DNA of 64,000 nt from Prorocentrum cordatum (lineage: Eukaryota): the NCBI GenBank assembly GCA_963575745.1, contig CAUYUJ010000286.1:1-64000 (forward strand), written 5' to 3'. Below are positions 4,611 through 38,310 of the stretch, in pieces. The first letter of the stretch is position 1. Every line of letters begins with the position of its first letter. Made by a program: the position numbers and the translations under genes. The notes beneath the pieces were generated by a model, which saw nothing but the letters and a program-made list of their open reading frames with translations, did not search any database and was not told the origin of the DNA.

Positions 4611-4632
4611 CTTGAGCCAAAACCGCTACGGA
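4611..4632 (-). other. Relict dinoflagellate spliced leader
   Basis: Reverse complement TCCGTAGCGGTTTTGGCTCAAG matches DinoSL TCCGTAGCCATTTTGGCTCAAG at 20/22. Confidence 0.85.
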
Positions 4633-7542: not shown

Positions 7543-8961
7543 CTATTGCGCTGCTGCTGTTGGAGCGCTGCACTGGGAGCAGAGGAACTCTTCGGAGGCG
7601 AATTGTGACCTCGAGCCTATTGGCACCAAAGTACCAACGCTTCCGGAGACGTAGGCCGGGCACCTATCGCACGGCACATGAGACCCCGGCTGAGCGTACC
7701 AGAGCGGCTCACACCTCTTCAGGCTGGCCACGCTCCACTTCTGCTCGAGAGTCGGGCCCTTGTCGTCGTCGCCTGTCTGAATACCGTCGCTCCACGAGAC
7801 GCTCCGCTTCTTCTTGGAAACGCCCGCAGAGCTCGAAGTGGCGTCGGTTTTCCGCTTCTTGAGCTTCGACGGGCCTGGCGGGCCCGCCAGCGCGCTCGAC
7901 GGCGGAGGCTGCGCGGGCCGCTGATTGTCGCACATGATGCTGGGGTACACCAGCCTGCCCGCGAGCGCCATCTGCCCGAACTTGTAGTGCTTCTCCTTCA
8001 ACGTTTCGGTGATGCCGTACAAGTTCTCGAGGTGCTTGAGCGCGGCCTGTATCTCTTCGCGCGACTCCTTGACACTCGGCCACGTACGGCGCCACAACTG
8101 GAAGCGCTCCTCGCTGTTGAAGACCTCCTTCATCATGCCCATCTTGATGGACACGAACTCAGCGCCGAGGTGCTGGAGGTCGTCGTGCAGGAGCTTGTAG
8201 GCAAGGATCTGCGCCGGGCCCTGGGACCGCGGGCGCCCGCTGCCCGCTGGCGCCGCGCGCGCCGGTGGCGCCGATGGCGCCGGTGGCGCCGGTGGACCTG
8301 GAGGCGACGGCGGCGCCTCCGCCGCCCCTGAAGTCTTCTTCGGAGAATCCGAGAGCTCCGATGACTCCGAGTCCGAAGAAGAATCGGACGACTCCGTCGA
8401 CGACGGCGTCGCCGGCGGCGGCGTGGGCGGAGGCCCCCGAGTCGCCTGCTGCGGCGTGGGCGGAGGCCGCGCCGTCGAAGCCGTCCCGCTGCCCTCATTC
8501 TTGGCGCCCTCGCTCCTGGTCGGCGTTGGCGGCGCTGGCGACGCCGGCGCTGGCGACGCTGTCCTGCTGGTCCGCGCACGGGGGCCCATAAGGTTCCAGG
8601 AGCCTTCGTCGCCGAACTTCGGCCAGAGGTCTTCAGAGACGGTCGCCCTGTCACGCCACAGCTTGCTGCCACCCCCGCCCCCCCACCAGCTGGCGAAGCG
8701 CCTGACCACGCCACGATGCTGTTGCTTGCAGGCCTTGTCCTCCGGAGACGCACACACCAGCTCTAGGTACTCCTTCGACGCCATCGCGGGGAAGGTGATG
8801 TCGTCGCGCATGAGCAACATTCGGAAGAACACCCCGAACTTCTTCACCGAGGAGGGGTTGCACTTCTTCACCAGCCAGTCCTCCCGGAAGCGATAGGACA
8901 CTAGGGGGAAGTAGACCACGTCGTCGATGCAGTTCTTGTGCTTGCTGGTGAACACCTCCAT
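7543..8961 (-). CDS. Hypothetical protein (~472 aa) with Pro/Ser-rich linkers and C-terminal CxxC...CxxC zinc ribbon
   Basis: Long ORF with coding-like GC3 bias. Probable start MEVFTSK at 8961. Ends PCDRC...FLCSQC. Relict SL at 9115-9128 (-). Confidence 0.7.
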   Translation of the reverse strand: MEVFTSKHKNCIDDVVYFPLVSYRFREDWLVKKCNPSSVKKFGVFFRMLLMRDDITFPAMASKEYLELVCASPEDKACKQQHRGVVRRFASWWGGGGGSKLWRDRATVSEDLWPKFGDEGSWNLMGPRARTSRTASPAPASPAPPTPTRSEGAKNEGSGTASTARPPPTPQQATRGPPPTPPPATPSSTESSDSSSDSESSELSDSPKKTSGAAEAPPSPPGPPAPPAPSAPPARAAPAGSGRPRSQGPAQILAYKLLHDDLQHLGAEFVSIKMGMMKEVFNSEERFQLWRRTWPSVKESREEIQAALKHLENLYGITETLKEKHYKFGQMALAGRLVYPSIMCDNQRPAQPPPSSALAGPPGPSKLKKRKTDATSSSAGVSKKKRSVSWSDGIQTGDDDKGPTLEQKWSVASLKRCEPLWYAQPGSHVPCDRCPAYVSGSVGTLVPIGSRSQFASEEFLCSQCSAPTAAAQ

Positions 8962-9114
8962 CGGCGAAGGCTCCGTCGTCGCGCGTCGCAGGCCCAAGGC
9001 CGCGCCGCGCAAGCAGGAACCCGTCGCGCGCCGGGCCGGCGGAGGCTCGCTGAGGCGCGCAGCCCGCCGGGGCGCGAGCAGGAACCCGTCGAGGTTCGCA
9101 GCTCTGAAAAACAA

Positions 9115-9205: not shown

Positions 9206-9965
9206 GCGGTTTTAAGCGGAACCCCAGGAAACGCGAGGTGTGCTGGGCTCCCTCCCCTCCTCCTCCTCCTCCTCCCCCCTCCTCCTCCTCCTCCTCATCA
9301 TCCTTCTCCTCCTACCTACCTACTAGTCAGTTTGAATCAATGCCGCATCCTCCTCTGCCTCCCTCCCTCCTCCCTCCGCCCCTCCTCCCTCCCTCCTCTC
9401 CTCTCCACTCCACCGCCTCATTTCATCTCCTCCCCTCCGCCTCCCTGGCCATCGTGTGCAGAACAAGAGCATCCTCTCCTCTCGTCCGCCTCCTCTTCTC
9501 CGCCATCTCCTCTAAGGCATAATCCGTGCCAGCTGCTTCGGCTGACCCATCCACCCTCAGCTGCTTCGGCTGACCCATACTCCACCCCCGCCCAGCTTCA
9601 GAAGACTTCGACACGACCATCCGTAACAACGGATGATATTTCTAAGGCTGATTGCCCAAAATGGGTGTTGGGGAGCATGCGAACCCTGTGGCCGAACCAG
9701 CCAACAAACGTTAAACGAGGCCGAACCAGCCAGCCCGACTGGCGCTGTCTCTTCAAAACGAGGACCCAACACCACAGGGTGGTTGGGAAAGCGACCTCCA
9801 TCCGTGTAATTTCCGAAGCTGTTAAGACGAAGTGATGAAGATGGGAGGAGGGAGGGGGCAGCGGGAAGAAGGTGGGAACGCGGGGCGCTGTCTCTTCAAA
9901 ACGAGGACCCAACACCACAGGATGGTTGGGAAAAAAGCCCTGCGGGGACCCCTCCTCCCTCCTCC
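9206..9965 (+). repeat. ~760-bp dispersed direct repeat, copy 1
   Basis: Near-identical to 16762-17520. Starts GCGGTTTTAAGCGGAACCCC and contains two TTCAAAACGAGGACCCAACACCACAGG.TGGTTGGGAAA hairpin modules. Confidence 0.95.
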
Positions 9966-10445
9966 TCCTCCTCCTCCTCCTCATCCTCCTACCTCCTCCT
10001 CCTCCCTCCTCCCTCCTCCTCCCCCTCCTCCTGGGGAACGATTCTGAGCGGATTTGGGCCGCCGTTGTATCACTGCCGTTGTCTCAAACGGCTCTCCTCC
10101 GACCATTGCTCGGACTTCTTCTGATCGTGTGACGAGCCCCTCACAGACGTCACTGCTCCGAGGAGGGGCGCCACTGCTCCGAGGAGGGACGGGAGCGAGA
10201 GGACCGAAGAGCGAGGAGGTTCGAGGATCGAGGGCCATCCTCCGCTGGGTGTCCGAGGAGGAGGGGGAGGAGGGGGAGGGGGAGGGGGCTCAGGAGGAGG
10301 AGGGAGCTTCGGGGGGTGCCCGAGAGCCCAAAAACTGCACTCGCGACGACGACGACGATGGTAACGCCATGCAACGAACGACGACGGCGATCATGATGAT
10401 AATATCGATGATGGTGATGATGGTGATGCGTGATGGCGACGATGG

Positions 10446-10467
10446 ACGTGGCCCGTTTTGGCTCTAC
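10446..10467 (+). other. Relict spliced leader upstream of the DNMT
   Basis: ACGTGGCCCGTTTTGGCTCTAC contains the TTTTGGCTC core, 40 nt before ATG 10508. Confidence 0.55.
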
Positions 10468-10507
10468 CCTAGCGGGCTTTGGACTGAGAGCTCGCCCAGT
10501 CTATACC

Positions 10508-11857
10508 ATGGACGACTGGTCCATGCTCGTGATAGACACGCCGCCCCAGCAGCGGAAGCCCAAGGCCAAGGCGGCACCGAAGCCCAAGGCCAACGGGCGC
10601 CCGGCGCAGTTCGTCGTTCGGAAGTCGCCAGCAGCCGCTGTTCCGATCAAGAAGTCCAAGCGCTCGATGGCGCCGCCGGTCACGACAAGGAAGCCTGCCG
10701 TCTCAGACTCGCGCGGCGCCGGCAAGAAGTGGAAGGCCCCAGATGTCGTCGTTCTCCGGGACATTGATCTTGAGAGGGTGGTCTTGACGGGCGAAACGGA
10801 TGGCAAGATTCTGTTCGGCAGTGATTGCGCGGGCATCGACACTGCTAAGCTCGCCTTGGAGTTGCTCGGCATTGGCAACTCCATTGTGCACGTGTTCGCA
10901 TCGGAAATTGACTTCGCCACGCGCAAGGTTATCATTGCCAGCCACCCCGACTTGTGCGTGCTCTATGGAGACATAACCACCCGCGATAACGCGGCGGTCC
11001 CGCGGGTGGACTTGTACATCATCGGATTCCCTTGCCAGCCGTTCTCTGTGCAGGGCATCCACGCGGGGATTGCAGATCCTCAAGGCCGAGGCATCGTGGT
11101 GTTTTTCGCCCTAAACTACATCCAGACCAAGCTACCGACGGTGTTCGTCTTGGAGAACGTTGAAGCCCTGACTCACCAGAGGTTCCAGGAGGAGCTGAAT
11201 GCCATCTTGAACTTTCTCGTCAGCCTCAAAGGCCCCGACGGTACCCCCGCGTACACTGTGAGCATGTCCGTCCTCGACACGTTGAAGGTCGGTGGCTTGC
11301 CGCAATCACGGCGCCGATTGTACATCACAGGAGTGCTGTCCAAGAAGTCCAATGTGCACACGAGTTGGCCGAGCGAGATCCCATACACGCCAATCGAACA
11401 GATCTTGGACAAGCATTCGGACAAGCTCGGCACCTTGCCAGTCCATGACTACCAGATCCACAACTTCACCCGCCTGGTGGACAAACTGTCTCAACATCAA
11501 GACATATTCGCCAAGACCAACATGCTCATCGCCGAGCTTGACTGCGGCAAGACCAGGTCGCCGCAATACGGCTGGGGGTACGCTCCGTGTTTGACGCGCA
11601 ACCGGTCTGGCGGTGGGGGCTTCTGGATCTTTGCCAAGCACCGATTCATGACGCTGAACGAGCTCGAGCGCCTTCAAGGGATCCCCCCGGGCCGCATCAA
11701 CTACGAGGACGCGTGCAGTCCCCGCCAGTACGCTCAGATGATCGGGAATGCATTCTCTGTCAGCGTCGTCGGCCGCCTCACGAGGAACCTTCTTGTGCAG
11801 GCTGGTTTTTTCAAGCGGCTCGCTGACCCGTGGCGGAGAGGCAGCAGTTCTGCATGA
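10508..11857 (+). CDS. C5-cytosine DNA methyltransferase, intact and intronless
   Basis: All motifs in order: I FGSDCAG (variant), II FASEID, III GDIT, IV GFPCQPFS (catalytic Cys), VI FVLENV, VIII GGLPQSRRRLY, IX RFMTLNELERLQG, X QMIGNAFSV. Basic KPKAKAAPKPKA N-terminus. Confidence 0.95.
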   Translation: MDDWSMLVIDTPPQQRKPKAKAAPKPKANGRPAQFVVRKSPAAAVPIKKSKRSMAPPVTTRKPAVSDSRGAGKKWKAPDVVVLRDIDLERVVLTGETDGKILFGSDCAGIDTAKLALELLGIGNSIVHVFASEIDFATRKVIIASHPDLCVLYGDITTRDNAAVPRVDLYIIGFPCQPFSVQGIHAGIADPQGRGIVVFFALNYIQTKLPTVFVLENVEALTHQRFQEELNAILNFLVSLKGPDGTPAYTVSMSVLDTLKVGGLPQSRRRLYITGVLSKKSNVHTSWPSEIPYTPIEQILDKHSDKLGTLPVHDYQIHNFTRLVDKLSQHQDIFAKTNMLIAELDCGKTRSPQYGWGYAPCLTRNRSGGGGFWIFAKHRFMTLNELERLQGIPPGRINYEDACSPRQYAQMIGNAFSVSVVGRLTRNLLVQAGFFKRLADPWRRGSSSA

Positions 11858-11892
11858 CGCCTCGCCTCGGCGCGCAACGATGAACGGCGGCC

Positions 11893-13105
11893 GGCATATG
11901 TGCATACGTAAGTGTGCGTGCATGTGGGTGTGTACCTACATACATACGCATGAGTGTGTGTATATATGTGTATGCGCATGTATATTATACATACATACAT
12001 ACGCATGTGTGTATGTATGTATGTATGTATACATACATACATACATGCATACATACATACATTTATGTGTATATGTATACATACATACATGCATACACAT
12101 GTATATACATGCATACATAGGGTATGTATGTATGTATACATACATACACATGTATATACATACATACATAGGGTATGTATGTATGTGTACATACATACAT
12201 AGGGAGGCCCATCAACCCGACGAAACCCCGTTTGCGCGCGAACGGGGTGTCGTCAACATTGAGCGCTCAATGTTGACGAAACTTGGTGGGCTCAGGGCGC
12301 CCTTAAGGGTATGCGCGGAGGCGCGGGGCGGCCCAGCAGCCTGACGAAACCCCGATCGCGCGCGATCGGGGTTTCGTCAACATTGAGCGCTCAATGTTGA
12401 CGAAACTCGGTGCGCGGGCCCTGCGGGGTGTGACGAAACCCCGATCGCGCGCGATCGGGGTTTCGTCAACGTCCACCGGTCGCCCAGGAGCGCGCGCGCA
12501 CCGAGTTTCGTCAACATTGAGCGCTCAATGTTGACGAAACCCCGATCGCGCGCGATCGGGGTTTCGTCAGCTGGCGACTTCTGCCAGCGGTCCTGGAATC
12601 AGGCCTTTAAGGTATCTGGTATTCGCCGCCCGTCGGGGCTCTGAGTGGTGTCTGTTGCGACTCAGACAGTCGGGGCCGGCGTGAGAAAACGTCAACGCTC
12701 CTTTGCCATCTTCAACCGTCGCCATCGTCAGCCCCCCCCCGTGTCTGTTAAGTCGCTACCATTTGATCATCATGGTCATCAGCCATGATCATCATCATCA
12801 TCATGATCATCATCATGACGATCATCATCATCACCATCGATCATCATCATCATCATCAACACATGACTATAATATACTATAATCACAATGATAATCATAC
12901 TCCACCCCGTGCGATGCGATGGCGACGCGACGATGATGGCGGCGGCGGGCATATGCGCATACGTAAGTGTGCGTGCATGTGGGTGGGTACATACACACAT
13001 ACGCATGAGTGTGTGTATATGTGTATTCGCATGCATATGTACACATACATACATACATACGCATGCGTGTATGTGCATGTGTATGCGCACGCATGTATGC
13101 ATGTA
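11893..13105 (+). repeat. Two related (TACA/TATG)-rich segments (11893-12200 and 12947-13105) flanking the palindrome array
   Basis: Both start GGCATATG.GCATACGTAAGTGTGCGTGCATGTGGGTG and run into alternating purine-pyrimidine microsatellite. Confidence 0.8.
12219..12570. repeat. Nested perfect palindrome / inverted-repeat array
   Basis: 76-bp perfect inverted repeat (12341-12416 vs 12495-12570). Each arm is made of a 38-bp palindrome TGACGAAACCCCGATCGCGCGCGATCGGGGTTTCGTCA overlapping a 36-bp palindrome GTTTCGTCAACATTGAGCGCTCAATGTTGACGAAAC. A third 38-bp copy lies in the spacer (12431-12468) and a degenerate copy at 12219-12282. Confidence 0.95.
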
Positions 13106-13492
13106 TGAGGAGGAGGAAGAGGAGGAGGAGGAGCAGGAGGAGGATGTGCACCAGCAGGAGGAGGAGGACGACGACGACGACGACGAAACGATTTTTCAGG
13201 CTAAAAAGCCGCAGCCGCTGGCTGCTAAATTCTCTGAATGTCTGAACTGACTTCCTTCTCCTCCTCCTCCTCCCTCCTCCTCCTCCTCCTCCTCTCTCCT
13301 CGTCGCTCTCCCCCCTCCCTCCCTCCTCCTCTCCTGCTCCTTTCCCCATCCACCTCCGCCTCCCCCCTCCTCCTCCTCATCCCCCTCATCCCCCTCATCC
13401 TCCTCCTCCTCCTCCCCCCTCTGCCGCGGGAAGGCTGGCACAGCCAGCGCACGCACAGAAAGGCGGAGGTGGAGGGAGGAGCACAAACAGGC

Positions 13493-14858
13493 TTAGGCGC
13501 CTCCCGCCCTCCTGGCGATGTCCGCCTCTAGAATCTCGCGCCTGCCGCGGGCGTCGAGTGCCATGCGGCTCAGCCGCCCCTCTGCGGCCATCCTCTTCTC
13601 CATGATGCGTTGCGCGACGCCGGTCCAGTCCTCGAAGTAGCCGTGCAATTGGTAGATGGGAAGCCCTTTTCCCTGTCAGGCCCCCACCCTGCCCCCTATT
13701 CCCTTTCCCCCACCTCCGAGGGGGGGGGGCGGGGATATAAGGGCAGAGGGGGGAGCTTACCTGTATTGTTGTCCTCCCCCGTCCTCGTACAACTTGCGAC
13801 GCCAAGAGTGCGCCCAAGCCTGGGGAGAAGGGAATTGACACCACCACCACCACCAGTGACCAACAGCGCGAGGAGCCAGAGGGCGGGGATATACTATCAC
13901 CGCCCTACTCCCCGAGGCGGGGATATATTATCCCCGCCTTGGGCAGGGGCATCATGGGCATCCTCGCTGGAGGTGGCCCCCCTGGCGGTGGGGGCGTCGC
14001 TTCTCCTTGCCAACCGCGCCTGTGAATTTTTCTGGCGATCCGACCACTGGGCCTCCGCCTCCTTCTCCTCGCGCATCAGCACCTCCAGCGATTGGCATGG
14101 GTCCTCCTTCTTCGCGCGAGGCCCTGCTGGCACTGGCCCTTGGGTACTGGCTTCGCCGCCTCCTTCGCCTCAGCGAGGAGGCCCCGCTGCTGGCCCTTCT
14201 GGTGCTGGGCCTTCTGGTCCAGGCCCTGCTGGTCACCGTCCTGCTGATAGCCCTGCTGCTGGCACTGGCCCTTCTGGTGCTGGCCCTGCTGGTAGCCCTG
14301 CTGGTCCTGGCACTTCTGGTGGTAGCCCTGCTGGCCCAGGGCTAGCAGGAGGGCCAGTTCCTTCGCCTTCGCCTTCACGAAACCCGCGAGGTCGGGCTCC
14401 TTCTTCGCGAGGCCTGGCTCCGCCGCCTGCTCCTCCTTCGCCTCCGCGAGGGCCTTCTGGTGCTGGACCTTATGGTCCAGGCCCTGCTGGTCACCGTCCT
14501 GCTGGTAGCCCTGCTGGTCCTGGCCCTGCTGGCGCTGGCCCTGCTGGTAGCCCTGGTGGTGGTAGCCCTGCTGGTAACCCTGCTGGTACTGGCCCTCCTG
14601 CTGGTAGTCATGCTCCTCCACCTCTTTCGCCTCCGTGAGGCCCGGCTCCGCGAGGAGGTATGGATCCCCCACCGCATTGTTGAGGAGATGAGCGGGCGGC
14701 GGCCCAGGAGGCGGCGTCGGCTCCAGCTTCACCTTCTTTCTGAGATGAACGGGCGGCGACCCCGGTGGTGGCCTCGGCCCAGCCTTGCAGCGCAGTGCAG
14801 GAGGCCGCATCGGCGGGGCCCTGTCGGGAGGCGGCGGGGGCCTGGGCGGCGGCAACAT
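13493..14858 (-). pseudogene. Putative spliced gene for a Pro-rich/Gln-rich (YQQG repeat) protein, with frame disruptions
   Basis: ORF 14076-14858 appears to continue in another frame (KKEDPCQSLEVLMREEKEAEAQW) after an extra CG near 14115. Further exon-like blocks at ~13761-13819 (GTAAG donor) and 13493-13672 (GKGLPIYQLHGYFEDWTGVAQRIME...). Phases do not join cleanly. Confidence 0.4.
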
Positions 14859-15198
14859 TCTGACGCCCCGCCTCCGAGAGCCGCTTGATGAAGAAGAGGA
14901 AGAGGTGGAGACGGGGGAGGAGGAGGAGGAGATTCCCTCTTCCTCCTCCTTCTCCTCCTCATCCTCCTCCTCCTACTCCTCCTCCCCCCCCCCTCGCTCT
15001 CCTCCTCCTGCCATCCTCCGAGGGGCGCGGAGATCATAACATCATAACATAGCGCATAACACATATCGTCATAGCGTCATAGCGTCTCGCGCCTCGCGGC
15101 CAATGCCTGGAAGCCTGGAAAGCCGCCTTCCTCGAGAGGGGCGGCGCGAGGGCGCGAAGATGACCAGATAACCGCACTATGAGTTTTGACAGTGCTCA

Positions 15199-15224
15199 TC
15201 CGCAGCCGTTTGGGCTTCCTCAAG
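15199..15224 (+). other. Relict spliced leader upstream of the dioxygenase
   Basis: TCCGCAGCCGTTTGGGCT[TCCT]CAAG, 19/22 to DinoSL with a 4-nt insertion. Confidence 0.7.
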
Positions 15225-15265
15225 GCGCAGACGCCAGCAGCTCAAGGCTGCACCCGCGCCGTGCC

Positions 15266-16402
15266 ATGGAGCCATATGTTATGGGCGTCGCCATGTGTGC
15301 CGTAGGCATGGTCGTGGGCGCCATGTGTGCCGCGAAAGTGCTCAGGCTCGCGGGAGACAGGCTCGCCGTGCACGGGCCCGAAGCGTCCGAGAACTGGTCC
15401 GACGATCCCGAGCCGCCGGAGTCGCCGTCGTCGATCCTCCTGTCTGCAGCTACTGCTGACCCGAGAATTCCTTGGCGGACCCGGTGGTCCCAGCGCCGGG
15501 CGCCAGCGCCCGCAGGGTCGCCGCCGAATGGCCCGGTGAGTCCTGCAGCCCCCGCCCTGGCGGACGCGGTGGTGAACGCGTCGGCGCGGCCGCCGCCGAG
15601 CACGCCTCCGCCGAGCGTACCCAGGCCCCCAGCAGGGCCGCCGCCGTCGGCCCTGCAGATACCGCCGCCGCCGCCGAGGGTGCCCGCGCCGCCAGCAGGG
15701 CCGCCTCCAGGTGTGTTCTTTGCGGAGACCGTGGCGCAACGTGCAGATGGGGATGCGGCATGGCGTTTCTTCATGGATCACGGCTTCGTCGTGATCGACC
15801 TCGGCCTGGACGCCGAGGACTTGCTCGCCTTGCACAGAGTTTCTGTCGACATGGCGTTGTTGGCGCCCATGCCTGCCACGAAGCACAATCGTGGGACGGG
15901 GCGCACGTGCGTCAACAGTATTCAGAATATCTACCGCGGCGCTTGGCAAGAGGCTCTCAAGATCATCTTGCGACGTCATCAGACCTCGTTTGTGCTGGCG
16001 GAGTTGGTCAAGGCCTACAACATCAAGTTTCACGATTGCGGCGGTGACTACGTCGAGCAAGGTGTGGACGACGCCACCGAGCTCGCTCACAGGAACCCGT
16101 GCGATTGGCATCGGGACTGCAACTACTACCTGCAATGGTTCTGCATATCAGTCCTGACGGCGGAAACAGACCTCCGACATGGACCGCTGTTTCTGGAGAG
16201 CTGGAGTACCAACAAGGAACAGGTGATTTTCCTAGGCAAGCCTGGGCTTTGTGTAATTAGAGATGTGTGGAACTTGCACCGCGGCAGTGCAAACACATCC
16301 CGCATGCCGCGGGCGATGCCCAGTTTCCGCTTCTGCACTGGCAACAATGCCAGGCCAGATGCTATGACCCCCCAGGACCTTCTAGAGTTCATTGGTCTAT
16401 AG
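15266..16402 (+). CDS. 2-oxoglutarate/Fe(II)-dependent dioxygenase, PhyH-like, with N-terminal hydrophobic helix and Pro-rich linker
   Basis: FFMDHGFVVIDL domain start, HxD in DWHRDC, GPLFL, distal His and 2OG-binding Arg in GKPGLCVIRDVWNLHRGSANTSRMPR. Confidence 0.85.
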   Translation: MEPYVMGVAMCAVGMVVGAMCAAKVLRLAGDRLAVHGPEASENWSDDPEPPESPSSILLSAATADPRIPWRTRWSQRRAPAPAGSPPNGPVSPAAPALADAVVNASARPPPSTPPPSVPRPPAGPPPSALQIPPPPPRVPAPPAGPPPGVFFAETVAQRADGDAAWRFFMDHGFVVIDLGLDAEDLLALHRVSVDMALLAPMPATKHNRGTGRTCVNSIQNIYRGAWQEALKIILRRHQTSFVLAELVKAYNIKFHDCGGDYVEQGVDDATELAHRNPCDWHRDCNYYLQWFCISVLTAETDLRHGPLFLESWSTNKEQVIFLGKPGLCVIRDVWNLHRGSANTSRMPRAMPSFRFCTGNNARPDAMTPQDLLEFIGL

Positions 16403-16761
16403 ACATCTGTGAGGGAATGGCCCACAAGGGGCCCCATTACACCATACTTCGAATGGCCCACCTGCGGCCCGTGCAGCGTGCATCTCAGCGCGAATTGATT
16501 TGCGCCAACAGAAGGTCTCAGCCATATGTCAGGCTGAACGACCGAGTATCCTTTAGTGTGCATCTCTGCCGGCAGAGTTTTCGATAGCTGTTGCCATGTC
16601 TGTTTGCATGCACGCTCGCAGAGCGAACCGACCTTGCCTCGGGCAAGCCTTGGAGTGAAAAGAAGTGCAGCCTCTCTCTTCAGCGCTGGTGAGCGGTGTC
16701 GTCTGCCTCGCGGGGTCGGGCCAAACAAATAGCTATCGACACCCCAGGCTAAAATACCGAA

Positions 16762-17520
16762 GCGGTTTTAAGCGGAACCCCAGGAAACGCGAGGTGTGCT
16801 GGGCTCCCTCCCCTCCTCCTCCCCCCCCTCCCCCCCCTCCTCCTCCCCCTCCTCATCCTTCTCCTCCTACCTACCTACTAGTCAGTTTGAATCAGTGCCG
16901 CATCCTCCTCTGCCTCCCTCCCTCCTCCCTCCGTCCCTCCTCCCTCCCTCCTCTCCTCTCCACTCCACCGCCTCATTTCATCTCCTCCCCTCCGCCTCCC
17001 TGGCCATCGTGTGCAGGACAAGAGCATCCTCTCCTCTCGTCCGCCTCCTCTTCTCCGCCATCTCCTCTAAGGCATAATCCGTGCCAGCTGCTTCGGCTGA
17101 CCCATCCGCCCTCAGCTGCTTCGGCTGACCCATGCTCCACCCCCGCCCAGCTTCAGAAGACTTCGACACGACCATCCGTAACAACGGATGATATGTCTAA
17201 GGCTGATTGCCCAAAATGGGCGTTGGGGGGCATGCGAACCCTGTGGCCGAACCGGCCAACAAACGTTAAACGAGGCCGAACCAGCCAGCCCGACTGGCGC
17301 CGTCTCTTCAAAACGAGGACCCAACACCACAGGGTGGTTGGGAAAGCGACCTCCATCCGTGTAATTTCCGAAGCTGTTAAGACGAAGTGATGAAGATGGG
17401 AGGAGGGAGGGGGCAGCGGGAAGAAGGTGGGAACGCGGGGCGCTGTCTCTTCAAAACGAGGACCCAACACCACAGGATGGTTGGGAAAAAAGCCCTGCTG
17501 GGACCCCTCCTCCCTCCTCA
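16762..17520 (+). repeat. ~760-bp dispersed direct repeat, copy 2
   Basis: Near-identical to 9206-9965. Bracketed by a 35-bp direct repeat (16703-16737 / 17532-17566, 33/35 identical). Confidence 0.95.
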
Positions 17521-17593
17521 TCCTCCTCCTCCTGCCTCGTGGGGTCGGGCCAAGCAAATAGCTATCTTTAGGCGAGATATACCCATTGTAATA

Positions 17594-17625
17594 TAGCTTT
17601 TTTGGTTCGAGCATTTTGCTCGAAG
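17594..17625 (+). other. Tandem relict spliced leaders
   Basis: TAGCTTTTTTGGTTCGAG (14/18) followed directly by a 5'-truncated CATTTTGCTCGAAG, the tandem arrangement known for recycled dinoflagellate mRNAs. Confidence 0.65.
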
Positions 17626-17687
17626 ACCCACGCAGTCAGGCACATCACTTTACTACAACATCAAATCACTTTACTACTACATCAACG

Positions 17688-18461
17688 ATGGACGCTTCGT
17701 GGGAACCCCCTCAGCAGGTCAGGCTGCAGAACGGGGCATGGAGGCCGGCTCCTTGGTGCAAGTGGGTAAATGATAACTGGCGGTGTTACATGTGCAGCAG
17801 CAAGGGCGTTTGCATGACTCCAGAACATATTGCATCTGAGCTCCACGTGCGGCGCACGGACGTCAAGTGTGGCTACTGTTACACGTACACACGTGAGTTC
17901 GGGTCGAGGATCGAGGAAGTGTGGACGCGCGAGGACTCTATCCGTGCTGCTGAGCCTGATCAGCCTGACACGCAGGACGCCGTCGCTCCTCCAGCGCTCC
18001 CCGGTGGTCCTGCAGGGCTCCCCGACCCCGCGGCCCAGGGTCAGCTCGCCGGTGGCGTTGTCCAGGCCCCGCTGCCCGGTGCTCCAGGGCTCGTCGCGAC
18101 GCAGCCGACGCCCCCGAAGATCGACGCGATGCAGACGACGCTCGATGCGAAGATCGACGCGATGCAGACGACGCTCGATGCGAAGCTCGATGCGCTGCAG
18201 AGGACGCTCGACAGGCTGGACGTTATGCAGACTGCAGTGGACTCGAAGCTCGAGAGGCTCGAGGCTGCAGCGGAATCGTTGCAGACCAACGTGGACGCGA
18301 AGCTGAAGGGGCTTGGCACTGCAGTGGACTCGTGGCAGACTGTAGTGGACGCGAAGCTGGCCGCGGTGACTGAGAAACTCGATAAGATCGATAGGATGTT
18401 CACGAGTCCACCGCGCGGAATGGGAGCGGTGGCTGCGCGGGCTGCGCGCGAGGCCTCGTAG
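17688..18461 (+). CDS. U1/matrin-type C2H2 zinc-finger protein with C-terminal 11-residue-repeat coiled coil
   Basis: CYMCSSKGVCMTPEHIASELH (CxxC...HxxSxxH), Pro-rich linker, KIDAMQTTLDA repeats. Confidence 0.75.
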   Translation: MDASWEPPQQVRLQNGAWRPAPWCKWVNDNWRCYMCSSKGVCMTPEHIASELHVRRTDVKCGYCYTYTREFGSRIEEVWTREDSIRAAEPDQPDTQDAVAPPALPGGPAGLPDPAAQGQLAGGVVQAPLPGAPGLVATQPTPPKIDAMQTTLDAKIDAMQTTLDAKLDALQRTLDRLDVMQTAVDSKLERLEAAAESLQTNVDAKLKGLGTAVDSWQTVVDAKLAAVTEKLDKIDRMFTSPPRGMGAVAARAAREAS

Positions 18462-18589
18462 CGTTGCTGGCCTGTTGCCTGGAAGGAAGAAGATGGAGGA
18501 GGAGGAGGAGACGGGGAGGGAGGGAGGAGAGGGAGGGAGGAGGAGCAGGGAAGACATGTTGAATAGACGGCGCTCGCATTTTCCCTGTC

Positions 18590-19180
18590 AGCCTAGGCGG
18601 CGCAGGACGTTATGCAGCGCACTCGTTGTTAGATCTGCGATAGGGCATCCTAAGGAGCCCGATTGCAGCTTGAATCCTGAGGTAGCCTAGCCAGCGCGAC
18701 GAATAGGCAGAGCGCCGGCGTACCAGAACGCCCCTCATCGCCATCCTGATCCTCATCCTCATTATCATCACAACAACATCACAACAGCACCGCCACTTGA
18801 GGATCCCAAGCTGGAGGAGGAGGAGAAGGCGGTTCTCCTCCTGACACCTGGTGGATGAAGCAATGTCGATACCGCTGGATGACACTCGTCGCCGCGGCTG
18901 GATTCGCCTCGAGATTCTGATCCGAACGCGCCCCGGGCGAGGTCCAGCGAGTAGCGGTATCGATGTTGCTTCGAGTAGTGAGTGAGTGAGTGTGTGTGTG
19001 TGTGCGTGCGTGTGTGCGTGCGTGCGTGGTTAGCCCCCCCCTCGTCCTCCTCTAATGTCATGCATTGCAGCAACATGTTCTTAACGCTGTAGAACATGTT
19101 GGCGTCAGGGGCACCAGTAATGATGAGCTGCATGGAGTGCAGGATAGACTCTATTAACTTTTTTGTTGTTGCATTGGCTT
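18590..19180 (-). CDS. Putative small spliced gene or pseudogene of unknown function
   Basis: Exon-like blocks KKLIESILHSMQLIITGAPDANMFYSVKNMLLQCM (~19040-19175), NIDTATRWTSPGARSDQNLEANPAAATSVIQRYRHCFIHQ (~18848-18968) and DGDEGRSGTPALCLFVAL (~18690-18745), separated by simple-repeat introns. Middle block is 39/45 nt identical to 3799-3843. Confidence 0.35.
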
Positions 19181-19545
19181 TTCACCCAGCTTGCCTGCGT
19201 GAATCGTCGTCATCGCCGAACCTCGCCGAACCTCCTCTCCCTCTCCTCCTCCTCATCCTCCTTCCTCGTCGTCCGACGACGCGGAGGCTCGAGCGGGGCC
19301 GGCCCGCCCCGGCCTCGCGGAAGCCCTCGGCCGCCTCGGCCTCGCCAGCCCCTGCGGCGCGCGCCGGCCGGCCGTCTCTCCTCCCGCCGCCCTCCTCCTC
19401 CTCTCCTCGTCTCCACCACCACGATTTCCTCGACCTCCTCCACCGCCTCTCTCCTCCCCCCTCCTCCTCCTGACCTCCTTCACCGCCCCCCTTTCCTTAG
19501 ACCACCCCTCGCTTCCTGGCTGACGCCAGACTCCATCTGCCGGCA

Positions 19546-22500
19546 ATGGACGGCTGGGATGTTTTCTTGGACGCCATTCCGCCGCCGCCCGCCGCGCCTA
19601 GCGGCGGGGCGACGCGCCCGCGACCCGCCGCCAGCAGCCAACCGCCAGCCCTGGGGGCGCCGCTGTGCAGGGACTTCCAATTCACTCGCCTCAGTGACTA
19701 CACCATCGACAAGTACGAGAAGCACGTCGACTTGTGTGATTCTGTAGATTGCGTTATCTGTTTCGCAGCTAAACGCCTGGGTACATCGCACTGGTTCTGG
19801 CGCGAAACCCTCTTGGACCCTCTGGCCCCAGACCGCGGTACGTGGGCAGCGTTCGCGACGATGTCGACGGGAAGGCCAGCGCTGGGCTGCTGGATATGCT
19901 CTACAAGCACCAAGATGAACAAGCCCGGCCTCGCCCAATTCAGTTTGGATTCGCCTGATGTCCTGATCCAATCCAACATCAAGAAGCACGTGAGCTCACA
20001 GATTCACAAGGAGCTGAGCAGCGTCGTCGTTGGCACCATCGCATCTGGGAAGACGCCTGTCCAAATTACGGTTCCTGGGGCCCCATCTGTTTCGACTTTC
20101 AGAAGCCTCCTGCAGGCAGTTCGGGGAGAGGGCCCATCCGACCTCCCCGCATTCGGAAGAGCAAGAAAGAAGAGACGCATGGTTTGGTGCATAGCCGAGG
20201 CATTGCGGTCTCTATTGCGCTCCTTCTTCAAGAAGAAGACAGTGTCTTCTATTCTGCAAGACACTACGGAGGAGGTCCTGCTCATGCGCATCAGGGGCTG
20301 CGATACGAACATCAACGTGATGAGCGGTATCGTCGGTGTATGTGATTTGACAAAGCCGCCGTTCAACGGCAGAGCGACTGGCATCCGGGACGCTTCCCTG
20401 CACGTCCTTCGGGAGTTTTGCACGCCACTTCGGGGCCCGCCGTTTTCGAAGAAGCACGGCAGATTCGACCAGAAGCTGTTCAAGAGCGTGTGCGAGTCCG
20501 TGCAGATGTATACAGCTGACTCTGCAGCGCCGGAGCAAGTGGCTGGCAAGTTCTTGAAGGACCTTCTGCCGCTGCTGCTCTCCTTCTCTTTTACTCTCCT
20601 CCCTCCTTCTCCTCGTTCACTCTCCCTCGTCTTCCACCTCCCTTATCACCACCTCCACCGCTGCTGCTCCGCCTCCTCGTGCTCTCCTAACCCTCTTTCT
20701 CCCCCTCCTCCGCAACCTCCGTTCCCTTCTGCCCTCCTCCTCTCCTCCTCCGCTCCATCCCATTTTCCGCGCCCTGAGAGGACGCCGGGTGGGCCCAGGC
20801 AGCTAGGTGCATTTCTCGCGACGTGCTCCCTAACTTGAAAAAGGTTGCGCAGGACAAGCCCCACGGCGTCCGGAGGGCGTGCTCGAGGGCATGGGCTGCA
20901 GACCAGTACCTGAGCGACACGGCGGACATCATGATCCTCGCGAAAGGTTCGATCACGACCCTGATACAGAACTCCCCGACGTTCAAGGGATGGTTTCAGC
21001 AACACAATGAGAAGTTGGATCACTGCCCGTTCCAGGCCAACAGGATCCGCGACCTGAGCTTCGCAAAGCATCGCTTCAATTCGACGCAGAAGCCTTTCGG
21101 GCGACACGTCCTGATGTTCAAGAGCGTGATTGCGACGGCAACCCAGATAGCTACCTCTCGCGTGGGCAAGCAGGAGAGCAAGCTGGCCTCGGCGTACTTG
21201 TCCTTTCTGGACGTGGAGCGCGCAGTCACGTTGGCTCTCCTGGCAGATGCGGGGGACGAGTGCAACATGCTCATCCGCGTCATGGACACCGAGCGCATGG
21301 ACGTCTCTGCTGTTTCCATGAACTTGCGCGCCTTCCTCAGCAGGATCCATGCTCTCTTCGTTGATGAACATTGTTGGAAGCTCGGCTACACGCAGTACAT
21401 GGTGCAGCAACTTCAGGAGCCCGTGCTCCTCCTCGCAATGGATGGTCAGAAGACGCTGGGATGCGCGGCCGGCGTCCCCGTCGACGTCAAGAGGAGGTGC
21501 GTGCAACGGATGGCTAATTGGGTCCACTTGGCCCGCGAGACCATACGTGCAGAAATTCCAGAGTTCGAGATCATCTACGCGATGAGGGCATTCAATCTCG
21601 GCGAGCTATCGCAGTCCCTCGGCGCGCCCGCACAGGGTTCGCAGCATGACCTAGGGAATCAGACTATGTCCCAATTGCGAGCAAGTTGCGACAGCTTGGC
21701 CGAATTCGTCTGCGTGAACCCGACCGCACTGTTCAGCCAGCTCAACGACGTGAGGCCGATAGCGCAGCAGATGCTGATAGACCCGTCTTGTACTGGTACT
21801 ATTGCCGCGTGGGCGATGGCGGTTGCCGAGTGTCAGAAAGACGCCCGAAACGCGAAGCTCCACCCGGTGGGGGCGTTGAGGCCAGTACTGATGACCTTCG
21901 GCGCCTACGGCCCGAGCACTAGCGGCCTCGAGCAGAACTTCTCGCAGATCCTCAACCTCGCTGGCGCGAATCGGCCAGACAAGTGGGGGGGCTACATACA
22001 GGACGAGCTCGTGATCAAGCAGCCGTGGAGCAAGGGCCACATCGATCGAGCGGCGGCGCTGGCGCCTAAGATCTGGGCAAAGATTTACGGACCGGTTCGC
22101 AGGCCAAGAGTGCGCGTCCGCATGGACATTCACAAGGAAGCCCCCGCAAGGGCGCGCGACGTCAACACTGAGACGTCCTGGATTCGGGGCAGGCGCGCCG
22201 ATGTTCAGGGCGTTGTTTCCCAGAAACGGCCAGTCGACTTGACGAGCGCCCCGGGCACGCGGACCGTCGGGGTTGACGGATGGACCGCCGACCACGAGAA
22301 GGAGGTGAAGTTCCAGCAGAATAAGAGGCAGAAGCGTTTCCACGATTCCGCGCTGAATGGAGAGATCCCGGAGGACCAGCTGGCCTGCGCCAGCGAGGAC
22401 CCAGGATGGAACAATGAAAATTTCCTCCTCACCCTCCTATCCCTGGCCCCGCCCCCCTCCCGTCCCTGGCCCCACACTCCTCGCCCTCCTATCATCCCTG

Positions 22501-23489
22501 GCGCCACGTCGGAGGGCCCCTGCGGGGCGCGGGAAGTCAGCAGGGGAAAAGCTGTGCACAGGGGGAGGGGGCTGAGGGGGGGAGGAGGAGAACACTCGAA
22601 CAGGCACGTGGTCAGCCAAGTCAAAGCGGCGACATGCAACGCAGGAAAACAATGCAATGCTGATGATGCAACACAGCAAAAAACGGGGGGGGAGGACGGG
22701 GGGGGACGGGGGGGGAGGAGGAGGACGGGGGGGGAGGACGCGGCGGAGGAGGAGGACCCAAACTATCTTCTGATTTCGGGGGTGTGTCACCATCAGGAGG
22801 AGCTCAAGGGCGTCCTCGACCAAGTAGCGACGGAGAGAAAGAGGGTCAATGCATACGTGGCGAAGGCCAAGAGACAGTCCGCAGCCGAGGCGCCGCGCGT
22901 CGCACGACTGCGCGGCAAGAATGTTTTCTTCGATAAGTCCGTGGCCCTCCCGGAGGCGAGCCGTGTTGCTGACGTACTAAATAGGAACGGGGCCGGCGTA
23001 GTTGCGACTCGTCCAGAGGCGGACGTGTTCGTTGTTAAGGATGTGGAGTCTCCTGGGCAGCGCGTCCAGTTCGCGGCAGCCCTGATCGGCGGCGTGGTGT
23101 GCACGTTTGTATATCTCGAAACGCGCGGCGCTGCGGGCGTCGCCGTGGCTTACAAGCCGCAAGTCACAATGCATCGGTTTGCTTGGTGTTCGGCAGCGTT
23201 CATAGCTGCGCACCCATCTTCGCACGAGATAATTCGGGGAATGAGCGAGCGGAGCGAGTCTAAATGGACTTTGTATGAGCCTGATTGTAAGCTTGTGTTC
23301 GCAGAGAAGGCGACCCGTCTCAACGCGCAGAAGAAATTCGCGAACTCCGTTGCTTTTGTGACTGCCGGGGAAAAGGCCGATCCAGCCATCTCGTGCGTGA
23401 GAACGCGCCTTACAGGCCCTGAGGCGCTTTTAAAGTATGTGGTGCTGGACCCCGTTCGATGCGCGGTCGGCGCGTGCCATCGACGATGA
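19546..23489 (+). CDS. hAT-like DDE transposase (~1107 aa, 3 exons) with N-terminal zinc finger and C-terminal BRCT-like domain
   Basis: Exons 19546-20559, 20781-22397, 22797-23489 join in phase 0 through GA-AG introns. ZnF GCWIC...KKHVSSQIH; D1 SILQD; D2 YTADSAAPE; DxxH (QDKPH); HRFNS (cf. hAT TRWNS); catalytic E in GPSTSGLEQNFS (cf. PxxSxxxERxFS). BRCT-like LRGKNVFF...LNRNGAGVV...ADVFVV...AALIGGVVCTFVYL. Confidence 0.85.
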
Positions 23490-23857
23490 TTCGGAGTGTT
23501 GCAAGGCTGCAAAACACATTCGAGATTTGGCGAGGCTGTTGCGGCCTGGGCGGTTGCAAGTAAAACACAAATCATCATCATCGTCATCGCCACTGTCATC
23601 ATCATCATCATCATCATCATCACAAGCTCGATCACCTCGGTCATCGTCATCACCGCCGCTGCCGCCACCGCAATCGCCATCATCGCTCGCAGTCGCAGCC
23701 GACGCCCCAACGAAACGAGAGGGGGAGGGGAAGCAGCGGGAGGAGGAAGAGGAGGGGGAGGGGGTGGGGCAGGCCTACGGCGCGAAACACAAACAGACGA
23801 GCAGGGCAATTGCGAAGCCGAAAAAACGTTTCGCAAGAAGCGAGCGAAACGCACCAG

Positions 23858-23879
23858 TCCGCAATGGTTTTGGCCCAAA
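23858..23879 (+). other. Relict spliced leader upstream of the second DNMT
   Basis: TCCGCAATGGTTTTGGCCCAAA, 15/22 to DinoSL, 59 nt before ATG 23939. Confidence 0.5.
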
Positions 23880-23938
23880 TTGATTTGGGCAGGCGCACGT
23901 ACCGCCGTGCAAACTTTTGCCGACCGACGCGGGTCGCC

Positions 23939-25315
23939 ATGGCCTTCAATCAGCAGTCTGCCCCGTTGCCTCTGCGCCCGTTGCCTCTGCGCCCGTTGGG
24001 CTTGCCGCCCCGCCCGCGCAAGCGCCCGGCCCCTGAGCTTCCTGTGCAGGAGGAGGACCCACCAGAGGTGGCCCCGGCGGAGCTGGATGATACGCGGCAG
24101 TCGCTGGAGGTGCTGGACGTGGAGATGGCGTCCCAGCTGGAACTCGGCACTGGTGGTATCAGCAGCGACAAGGTGGTCTTGGGCACCGACTGCTCGGGGC
24201 TGGACACGTTCAAGGTCGCTTTGGACGCTGTTCTGGTCAAAGGCGGGAAGGATGTCGTGCACGCGTTCGCGTCCGACAACCGGCTGTGGGCACGCAAGTT
24301 CATCAAGAAGCACAACCCGGGCTTGTGCATCGTGTGCAGCGACATCACCAAGCGCCCCAACAAGCAAACGCCCTACGTGGACATTTACTGCGCCTCGCTT
24401 CCGAACAATGGCCAGTACACGGCACAGGAGCTGTCCGACGGCGTGGATAACCCCCACGACAAGGATATCGTCACGATGCACGTTCTCAACTACATCAAGG
24501 AGAAGAGGCCCAAGGCATTCCTGCTCGAGTCCAGGGCCCACCTCTACAGCGCGAGCATGAAGCCAGAGATGGCGGCGGTGCACGGCTACCTGCAGAAGAA
24601 GCTCACGACCGAGAGCGGCGACCCGAGCTACTACGTCTGGAGCGACCCGATGGACGCGCGTTGCGATGGTGGCCTGCCTCAGGCGTCGCAAAGGTTGTTC
24701 TTCGTTGGCATCCTCAAGACGGCAGTGGATCCCAGGGCCGTTTCCAACCCGTTGACCCTCTCTCAGATGGAGGAGAAGAGCCTCGCGGACGTGCTGGACC
24801 CATACGTCGCGCCACTCTCCAGGCCCGACTTCGACGAGCCGCCAGGCCTGAGTCCGGCCCAGCTCCGCAATTACAAGAAGGTCAAGGACTGGCTCGAGCC
24901 CGCCATAGACGTGAAGATGCCGAACCCCCCTGGCAATCAGATCATCATCTCGGACTTGAGCGTCGGTCCGACGAGGGACCCCGACACTTTGCGAGGATGC
25001 TCGATCGGCCTGACGCCCAGCCGCCCGAACGGCTACTTCATCTGGGGGAGGCAGCGGTTCATGACGACTACTGAGATGGAGTCGCTGCAGGCCATTCCGA
25101 ACGACCACTTTAAGTACGACGGCATCATCAGCGAGAACCAGTACAAGAAGCTCGTCGCTGAGGCGCCGCCTGCCCCGATAGTCGGCCGCGTCTTGCGCAA
25201 GATTTTGCTACAGGTGAAGCTCCCTCCGGCTATCGTGGAGCCCGACCCTTGGTGCCCTTCTTCGGGCTGGGCGAAGGCGAAGGCTTATCCTCCTGTGTTC
25301 CCCTACTTCGACTGA
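23939..25315 (+). CDS. C5 DNA methyltransferase-fold protein, predicted catalytically inactive paralog
   Basis: Collinear with 10508-11857: LGTDCSG, HAFASDN, SDIT, GGLPQ, RFMTTTEMESLQ retained. Motif IV is SLPNNGQY (no PC), motif VI is LLESRAH (no ENV), motif VIII is QASQR, motif X is LVAEA. ORF uninterrupted. Confidence 0.85.
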   Translation: MAFNQQSAPLPLRPLPLRPLGLPPRPRKRPAPELPVQEEDPPEVAPAELDDTRQSLEVLDVEMASQLELGTGGISSDKVVLGTDCSGLDTFKVALDAVLVKGGKDVVHAFASDNRLWARKFIKKHNPGLCIVCSDITKRPNKQTPYVDIYCASLPNNGQYTAQELSDGVDNPHDKDIVTMHVLNYIKEKRPKAFLLESRAHLYSASMKPEMAAVHGYLQKKLTTESGDPSYYVWSDPMDARCDGGLPQASQRLFFVGILKTAVDPRAVSNPLTLSQMEEKSLADVLDPYVAPLSRPDFDEPPGLSPAQLRNYKKVKDWLEPAIDVKMPNPPGNQIIISDLSVGPTRDPDTLRGCSIGLTPSRPNGYFIWGRQRFMTTTEMESLQAIPNDHFKYDGIISENQYKKLVAEAPPAPIVGRVLRKILLQVKLPPAIVEPDPWCPSSGWAKAKAYPPVFPYFD

Positions 25316-32845: not shown

Positions 32846-34309
32846 GACTGATGCCCGGCCGGGAGGTCGAGGAGAGCACCGCGTGGCAGGGAGCGCCCGG
32901 CAAGCCCTTCTGGCAGGCTGCCGGCGTGCCCCGTCCGCGACATGGGCAGGCCGCCCCGCACCGCTGGGGAGGGGACACTGCAGGGGCCCCCAGGGACACT
33001 CCAACAAATGCACACCCGATCCCAGGATTCCCCATGTCTTCTCACATGTTCTCGATGCTCGTCTTCCCCCCCCCCCACTCCCCATCTTTTCCTGGGGGTC
33101 AGCGAATTCACTGTGTCTGCGTGTTTCTCCCCTCCTGAGACACCTCAACCGACTCCGCCTCCTGCTATGACTACGCCATGTCGCTCGCCGGCGAGACGTT
33201 GCTGGCGAGCACCGAACCGCGACTGCAGGGATCTCGGAGAGGAGGAGGAGGAGGAGGAGGAGGAGGAGGAGGAGGAGGAGGAGGAGAAGAAGAGGAAGAG
33301 GGGGAAGAAGGGGAGGAGGGTGAGGGGGAGAGGGAGGAGGAGGAGGAGGAGGAGGAGGAGGAGGAGGAGGAGGAGCAGCAGGACGAGGAGGAGGAGGAGG
33401 AGGAGGAGGAGAGGGAGGAGGAGGAGGAGGAGGAGGAAAGAGGAGGAGGGGTCGCCTAAGCCCTTCGGAGAAACCCTCCACATGCGGATACCTGGAGGTG
33501 CTGCCTCCTCTCCCCCTCCCGATCGCGAGGAGGCCTCGAGGACAGGGGCGGGGGCGGTGCGAGCGAGCGGGCGCGCCGCTCTGCTTCCGAGCGCGCGCCC
33601 TGCACGCCACCAAGAGCGGGAGCGCGGGCAGAGTACGGCTGCGCTCGCGGAGGGGGGAAGGGGAGGATAGAGGGCAAAACATCCACCCCCAGAAGTCGGC
33701 GGTGGACAAACCTGCCTTTGGTAAACCTCCCCTTTGTGAAAACGGCCTGGGGCCGAAACCGACGGACCTGGGCCCGCAAACATGACGGCCGCGACGCCCT
33801 CTCGCGAACCGAAAACTGCCAATTCCTTAATCGACGTGTCAGGGTAGGAGGTCTATTCTCCTTGCTAAAAAAACAGACTCTACCCCTCCCCCCCCAGCAT
33901 TATCGGCCCCCCTTTCGGGTATGTAAATCATATATGATTATGACCACATGTCCATGTCCATCCGAAATATGAATGTACACCTATCCCTGGGGGGCAGATA
34001 TCGACCCCCCTGAGGTTCGCGGGGACATCTTTTGTTCTAACATAACACTTGCTCACGAATCCCTTGCAAAGAAAGGGGACGAAGTGCACACGCGCGCGCC
34101 GTCGCGCGCGCATGCCGAAATCCTCCAAAAACCTTGGGCGTCAGAAGGATTACGCAATCGAGTTTCCAAAAAAACATACAAAAACACAGAATTCCGCAAC
34201 ACGGATTTGCTAAATTACCCTGTGGCGTACCCAACCCATTTGTATCAGCGGAAACCATGAGTTGGCCGAAACTTGTATGGACAATCAACTTGATGTGTAA
34301 GCTACTTGG

Positions 34310-38210: not shown

Positions 38211-38310
38211 NNNNNNNNNNNNNNNNNNNNNNNNNNNNNNNNNNNNNNNNNNNNNNNNNNNNNNNNNNNNNNNNNNNNNNNNNNNNNNNNNNNNNNNNNN
38301 NNNNNNNNNN
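38211..38310. other. Assembly gap (100 N)
   Basis: Run of n. Contiguity across it is not guaranteed. Confidence 1.

Follow-up and report, generated by a model that had tools for sequence, protein, structure and literature searches.

The first 64,000 nucleotides of Prorocentrum cordatum contig CAUYUJ010000286.1 (assembly GCA_963575745.1, forward strand), referred to here as the window, carry two genes of the C5 cytosine methyltransferase family, methylase A and methylase B. Methylase A appears to be an intact enzyme, and methylase B has lost the catalytic cysteine together with other catalytic residues while keeping a full-length frame and a predicted two-domain fold. The same losses are shared by all of the B-type relatives that we recovered, down to 52% identity. 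We lean toward the view that B is a pseudo-methyltransferase, an ancient paralog, sister to the A lineage, that would have been kept with a non-catalytic job.

RESULTS

Methylase B has lost residues mainly at catalytic positions

The initial annotation of this region described two collinear, uninterrupted, paralogous frames, and both were recovered as open reading frames (ORFs) on the same strand (Table 1) that match Pfam family PF00145. The match of A is strong (E 1.6e-37, 130.1 bits), and that of B, which is its sole Pfam match, is also above the cutoff of 22 bits (E 5.1e-10, 39.7 bits). An alignment of the two proteins over 369 residues shows 31% identity (E 1e-53).

Every catalytic motif is present in A (GFPCQ, ENV, QSRRR and GN), with GSDCAG at 10817, GFPCQPF at 11024, ENV at 11153, GLPQSRRRL at 11294 and GNAF at 11744, and the protein begins with a basic N-terminal tail. 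Translation from the ATG at 10433 gives 474 aa, which is the length of the relative P0265, and translation from the ATG at 10508 gives 449 aa. P0265 is identical to A at 473/474 residues, and a second near-identical sequence, P0006, comes from P. cordatum (98.7%). A carries all 10 of the columns that are invariant across 80 active relatives, and its best solved relative is M.HhaI (E 2.7e-10). Judged by these features, A is predicted to be an intact stand-alone C5 cytosine methyltransferase that fits the M.HhaI-type orphan family fully.

The equivalent motifs of B read GTDCSG (24182), SLPNNGQY (24395), LESRA (24524), GLPQASQRL (24671) and VAEAP (25154). The nucleophilic Cys is replaced by Asn (24404-24406; SLPNN in place of GFPCQ), the NV of motif VI by SR (24530-24535; ESR in place of ENV), the first motif VIII Arg by Ser (24686-24688; QASQR in place of QSRRR) and the GN of motif X by AE (25157-25162). 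B retains motifs I (GTDCSG), II (FASD) and III (SDIT), along with the motif VI Glu and the second motif VIII Arg. The motif coordinates thus bear out the initial annotation, which had listed these four losses in a 458-aa frame that keeps motifs I-III.

The losses in B are concentrated mainly on catalytic positions. The comparison used 54 columns with at least 85% conservation among 42 active relatives, and we made the assignment of these columns to motifs ourselves; B is altered at 13/18 columns in motifs IV (with its loop), VI, VIII and X versus 5/36 elsewhere (Fisher p=3.5e-5). At the 10 invariant columns, the residues still present in B are G, P, P, E and the second R, and those lost are G199, C202, S206, N243 and R294 (A numbering). 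The Cys column itself is occupied by Cys in 255 of the 259 database relatives that cover it, and the four remaining rows are three from the B clade and one unrelated family member, P0239 (ENA, 617 aa). P0239 also lacks both motif VIII Arg residues and the GN, which suggests repeated origins of dead copies within this methylase family.

The dead state is shared by all B-type relatives

An exhaustive phmmer search with B against 1.84 billion representatives returned 562 matches at E<=1e-3, with only two B-type clusters among them. A word-based search had given three relatives; phmmer followed by cluster look-up added members, for a total of six besides B. Two are P. cordatum proteins, namely, P0262 (CAK0805313; 99.6% identity to B) and P0002 (CAK0809999; 97%), the latter with a gap in its gene model and no stop. 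Three ENA sequences (P0001, P0264 and P0263) are 88-90% identical to B, and the most distant, P0003 (Logan/ENA), is 52% identical and ends after approximately residue 340 of B.

The dead state was found in all six of these sequences (PN/RN, ES(R/K) and AE/KE). Each has Asn at the Cys site; the ENV Asn has become Ser, and the first motif VIII Arg has become either Ser or Ala. Glu stands for the Asn of GN in all six as well, with a doubtful alignment at that column for P0003 given its early end. Whether the loss of Cys is conserved among homologs was a point raised by the initial annotation, and 6/6 relatives have Asn at this site. The two outcomes that had been named in advance as speaking against the proposal, copies with PC or ENV and frequent stops, were not seen among the six, none of which has an internal stop, with P0003 ending early. 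The shared lesions indicate that the loss of the Cys, of NV in motif VI, of the first motif VIII Arg and of GN in motif X took place before the B clade diversified.

Metagenome and viral scans for DNA of B relatives confirmed no relative. In a search of sequencing runs, 20 rows hold part of B, with no RNA run among the matches listed, and neither the accessions nor "cytosine" turned up in the supplementary files of a study of the P. cordatum nuclear proteome. The ENA contigs that carry B are 1820 bp long and those that carry A 1557-2155 bp, which are mRNA-like sizes.

Methylase B is predicted to keep the complete two-domain fold

The AlphaFold2 model of B, built on a 70-sequence alignment, has a mean predicted local distance difference test score (pLDDT) of 82.3 and a predicted template modeling score (pTM) of 0.82, and disorder is confined to the tails (residues 1-39 and 443-458). 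Compared with M.HhaI, the model gave a Z score of 26.1 and a root-mean-square deviation of 3.1 A over 281 residues, with model residues 77-429 matched to chain residues 10-325. Given that this stretch of the M.HhaI chain is covered, both domains are present in the model, and B is predicted to keep the complete M.HhaI-like fold of a catalytic and a target-recognition domain.

In M.HhaI, Cys81 is reported to form a covalent bond to C6, and the C81S mutant is described as lacking it (PMC3089467). Because B offers no thiol for the covalent step, it would be unable to methylate cytosine at C5. B plausibly still binds DNA, and perhaps S-adenosylmethionine (SAM) or S-adenosylhomocysteine (SAH), and it may hold a flipped cytosine, because motifs I-III, the motif VI Glu, the second motif VIII Arg and the recognition domain are kept. 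In M.HhaI, the equivalents of this Glu and this Arg hold the flipped cytosine, and mutants at the Cys bind DNA tightly.

Sequence changes between B and its most distant relative avoid conserved sites

Retention of B was judged by proxies, namely, site conservation, neutral simulation, GC content at third codon positions (GC3) and the predicted fold. When alignment columns were ranked by conservation across the family, the identity between B and P0003 fell from 75% in the most conserved quartile to 52, 44 and 40% in the following ones (267 columns; Mann-Whitney p=2e-5). The result held with the A clade left out of the yardstick (p=3.7e-5). Changes in this lineage thus avoid family-conserved sites, which argues against a pseudogene, given that a pseudogene would change evenly. 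Neutral substitution of the B DNA down to 52% identity over 320 codons left the frame open in only 1/400 runs of a simulation that modeled substitutions and no indels. In addition, the GC3 of B (0.84) is the highest among the ORFs measured, compared to 0.77 for A and 0.60 for an ORF antisense to B.

A and B belong to the orphan, M.HhaI-like methylases

A profile of the family matches M.HhaI at E 3e-53 over its full length and DNMT3A at only 2e-8. Since the match to M.HhaI far exceeds that to DNMT3A, A and B are orphan, stand-alone methylases of bacterial or viral type and not relatives of DNMT3. B alone had no methylase match at E<=1 among PDB sequences. Orphan DNA methyltransferases (DNMTs) without companion domains, some of them of viral origin, have been reported (PMC12344493).

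In an IQ-TREE analysis of 40 rows (LG+C20), the dead clade came out as the sister group of the A clade (support 98/95), and a quick tree of 52 rows also grouped them, with a Shimodaira-Hasegawa-like approximate likelihood ratio (SH-aLRT) value of 95. The phmmer ranking agrees with this grouping, given that the A clade comes next after the B-type clusters (2e-41) and the following match is at 2e-27. The stems in the 40-row tree are long for both the A clade (0.92) and the dead clade (1.66), and some caution over long-branch attraction is warranted for the sister grouping.

The initial annotation had also pointed to a motif I that is common to the pair and unusual. The motif is indeed common to both (GSDCAG in A and GTDCSG in B), but the form xGxDCxG is a family-wide hallmark and not an unusual feature, given that it also occurs in giant-virus loci from metagenome-assembled genomes (MAGs; L001-L004, IMG/VR) that are 31-35% identical to A. 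These four loci encode active-type methylases with VGTDCSGIEAP as motif I, as in the dinoflagellate family, and the family is therefore common to protists and Nucleocytoviricota.

Genomic surroundings of the two methylases

The DNA of the window is eukaryotic and GC-rich (~60%), and its closest named proteins are all from the dinoflagellate Prorocentrum cordatum. The features that we recorded are listed in Table 1.

Table 1. Positions of the methylase genes and other features in the window
Feature	Position	Strand	Remarks
Spliced-leader relic	4611-4631	-	2 mismatches/21 nt
523-aa ORF	7543-9114	-	probably a real gene; GC3 0.83
Direct repeat copy 1	9206..9982	+	778 bp, self-BLAST
Methylase A	ORF 10430-11857; gene 10433..11857	+	PF00145, full motif set
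407-aa ORF	15179..16402	+	putative PhyH-type iron/2-oxoglutarate (Fe/2OG) dioxygenase; GC3 0.72
Direct repeat copy 2	16762..17538	+	778 bp, self-BLAST
281-aa ORF	17616..18461	+	repetitive coiled-coil-like segments
Large neighbor gene	19546..23489	+	two ORFs, 19546-20838 and 20823-23489; 5' of B
652-aa ORF	23150-25108	-	antisense to B; artefact of B codon bias
Methylase B	23939..25315	+	ATG 23939 to TGA 25315; 458 aa; PF00145
Diverged tandem-repeat arrays	34300-35340, 50800-54100, 58190-59400		copies 75-94% identical
Assembly gap	38211-38310		100 N

In the P. cordatum gene model P0268, splicing joins the two ORFs of the large neighbor gene, and the stop codon of this gene lies 450 bp from the ATG of B on the same strand. 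Its family carries a BED-like CxxC..H..H motif, HRFNST and TSGxExxFS and, at the C terminus, an extension also conserved in P0269. To us, these motifs recall hAT transposases. The Pfam family PF05699 (Dimer_Tnp_hAT) is matched by one of six members of the neighbor family, below the cutoff of 21.4 bits (E 0.0083, 16.3 bits); the window's own neighbor ORFs gave no match to it, and no match to the gene was found in the PDB (profile search included) or the Atlas. The GC3 of the gene is 0.69-0.73. Between 18400 and 26600, we found no terminal inverted repeats, only low-complexity purine/pyrimidine matches. The six relatives of the family, at 25-99% identity, are without Pfam annotation, and one cluster holds 19 members on contigs of 3.4-7.3 kb. 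Taken together, there is weak support for a gene that is transposase-like or transposase-derived. A homolog of the neighbor (P0267, 95%) and the B homolog P0263 are each recorded from a 9410-bp ENA contig, probably the same one, and the adjacency of the neighbor and B is thus probably conserved.

The 407-aa ORF contains the pattern HxD...H, and its lead in the Atlas (0.92) is to PhyH clusters of giant viruses and haptophytes; searches gave no Pfam family, no solved PDB relative and no close IMG/VR relative. The 281-aa ORF contains 33- and 54-nt tandem repeats, and its Pfam matches to helical repeat families are all sub-threshold. The two copies of the direct repeat, which are 97.7% identical, flank A and the 407-aa ORF. 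Each copy stops just 5' of a gene start, that of A and that of the 281-aa ORF, and the repeat could have arisen by duplication of an intergenic or leader segment or could be what is left of an element. Immediately upstream of this cluster, on the opposite strand, is the 523-aa ORF, which matches no Pfam family; we consider it probably real because of its GC3.

The spliced-leader relic was found with the dinoflagellate motif, had 0 matches in 100 shuffles and fits a retroposed mRNA copy as well as a dinoflagellate source for the window. It is the sole good match in the window and lies far from both methylase genes, and we therefore rejected a retrogene origin of A and B. We likewise rejected an endogenous giant-virus island, given that close relatives of A, of the 407-aa ORF and of the neighbor family are absent from IMG/VR and that only distant members of the A family occur in giant-virus MAGs. 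No third methylase copy besides A and B was found by tblastn within the window, an Rfam scan of the whole window gave no match, and a CpG observed/expected ratio of ~1 for all genes shows no methylation footprint.

DISCUSSION

We consider it probable that B is both dead and retained by selection. The initial annotation had proposed a retained pseudoenzyme, and a dead B that was kept after an old loss of its catalytic residues is supported, though not proven, by the shared lesions, the predicted fold, the GC3, the conservation of sites and the neutral simulation. The jobs that the annotation had suggested for B (cofactor, methyl-DNA reader, transposase-targeting factor or inhibitor) are candidate roles. 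Several observations weigh against this view. Over the methyltransferase domain, B differs from P0001 at 37/383 positions and A from P0004 at 10/354, so that the B protein would change ~3.4x faster than A if P0001 and P0004 share a source. The recent changes in B at family-scored columns fall 8/6/13 into terciles from most to least conserved (p=0.056, a weak avoidance), compared to 0/4/5 for A; thus, 8/27 of the recent changes in B hit the most conserved tercile versus 0/9 for A. The recent evolution of B therefore looks relaxed. At 89% identity, the frame stayed open in 88/400 neutral runs, and P0003 is shortened. Motif X contributes to the cofactor pocket, and SAM binding may accordingly be lost in B. 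With respect to a joint function, M.HhaI-type enzymes are monomeric, and a heterodimer is not expected a priori. The genes for A and B are separated by 12 kb and three other genes, and their P. cordatum relatives are recorded on different contigs (667674 for A; 79162 and 564844 for B). The evidence for a pair is thus their paralogy and their linkage over 12 kb in this window, and the probably conserved neighbor of B is the weakly hAT-like gene and not A.

The faster and less constrained recent change, the runs left open at 89% identity and the shortened P0003 would all be expected if B were a non-functional duplicate under decay, with an intact look that comes from GC-rich DNA, in which stops are few, and from the youth of the copies. 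Long ORFs do arise by chance here: the 652-aa ORF antisense to B is spurious, and an open frame alone is therefore weak evidence in this DNA. Even so, we regard decay as unlikely. The dead state is older than a split that now stands at 52% identity, and conserved sites have changed less since (p about 4e-5); at that distance, with indels ignored, nearly all neutral runs had lost the frame. The GC3 of B is at the top of the ORFs measured, the fold prediction is confident, and the six close copies are open throughout, with the gap in the P0002 gene model lacking a stop. A different possibility, to which we give a low but real chance, is that B serves its upstream neighbor, as the dead methylase accessory of a hAT-type transposon or of a domesticated transposase. 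B might then guide the neighbor to particular DNA or might shield the DNA of the neighbor from host methylation by occupying the target sites. The short distance and common strand of the two genes fit this idea, as do the 9410-bp ENA contigs of P0267 and P0263, the near-identical copies on several P. cordatum contigs (those of B named above and 73420 for the neighbor) and the hAT-like motifs with their one weak PF05699 match. Transposon-borne DNMTs are also known in Symbiodinium (PMC5890265). On the other side, that match is sub-threshold and found in one of six members, the gene has no solved relative, no terminal inverted repeats surround it, and the shared contig is deduced from equal size only. 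Unidirectional gene arrays are, moreover, described as normal in dinoflagellates, which makes adjacency weak evidence (PMC11071213). Finally, B could be an enzyme with another chemistry, which acts on a different atom or substrate without Cys or relies on a conserved Cys that lies five residues upstream (DIYCASL). The motifs I-III, the motif VI Glu and the second motif VIII Arg are kept in all rows of the B clade, and the Cys at B151 is conserved in the clade. This residue aligns to a strand residue of A (Ile) and not to the catalytic loop, however, and in B other residues stand in for motif X and for most of that loop. We know of no precedent for catalysis by a C5-methyltransferase fold without the loop Cys, and we consider this possibility very improbable.

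Under the pseudo-methyltransferase reading that we favor, an ancestral B would have lost the Cys nucleophile together with NV in motif VI, the first motif VIII Arg and GN in motif X and would then have been kept as an intact two-domain protein. Binding of DNA and of SAM or SAH and the holding of a flipped base may persist without methyl transfer. Our best guess is that B modulates A-type methylation, either as a partner, comparable to DNMT3L and DRM3, or by occupying target sites. It may also act as a reader or shield at target sites, possibly for the hAT-like neighbor. That B works together with A is an idea drawn by analogy, which we put forward tentatively. With more hesitation still, we suggest that B might be a third independent "dead DNMT" regulator, of M.HhaI-like origin, a base-flipping protein that would recognize A-type targets and either recruit or stimulate A or protect DNA, possibly that of the hAT-like neighbor, from methylation.

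The closest known parallels are DNMT3L of mammals and DRM3 of flowering plants, which, like B, are conserved paralogs of an active C5 methyltransferase with catalytic residues lost. DRM3 is reported to be needed for normal DRM2-dependent methylation and Dnmt3L to be analogous (PMC2965745), and complexes of DNMT3A, DNMT3B and DNMT3C with DNMT3L have been solved, judging by PDB titles. The initial annotation had drawn the parallel to DNMT3L. It stands as far as conserved catalytic loss is concerned, but it does not extend to descent, given that the profile favors M.HhaI, and the comparison is an analogy only. DNMT3L and DRM3 belong to the DNMT3 lineage and carry an ADD or UBA domain, whereas B is M.HhaI-like, groups as sister to the orphan A clade, has PF00145 only and, in contrast to them, keeps motifs I-III and, as predicted, a full target-recognition domain. 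The M.HhaI-type enzymes of bacteria and the orphan enzymes of eukaryotes and giant viruses (PF00145) have the same fold and motif order as B, which differs from them in lacking the catalytic Cys and four further invariant residues. Dinoflagellates also have the intronless, transposon-borne genes SymbioLINE-Dnmt and SymbioDIRS-Dnmt3, described in Symbiodinium (PMC5890265). A and B are likewise intronless; unlike in those elements, B is dead, and no reverse transcriptase, RNase H or integrase domain was found among the 38 window ORFs scanned with Pfam, and the arrangement is therefore not that of SymbioLINE or SymbioDIRS. In open-access papers and preprints, we found no account of a dead DNMT paralog from any dinoflagellate.

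In summary, DNA methylation in dinoflagellates is extreme, and one account describes its control as unknown (PMC5890265). The genes for A and B are small, intronless and stand-alone, and the proteins can therefore be expressed singly and together, which makes them a clean test case. The dead DNMT regulators known from mammals and plants, DNMT3L and DRM3, both belong to the DNMT3 lineage, and a conserved dead copy of an M.HhaI-like enzyme would show the same solution outside that lineage. If B is indeed a regulator of this kind, it would represent a third independent origin and would open a way to study how dinoflagellate genomes establish or escape their unusual, near-complete CG methylation.

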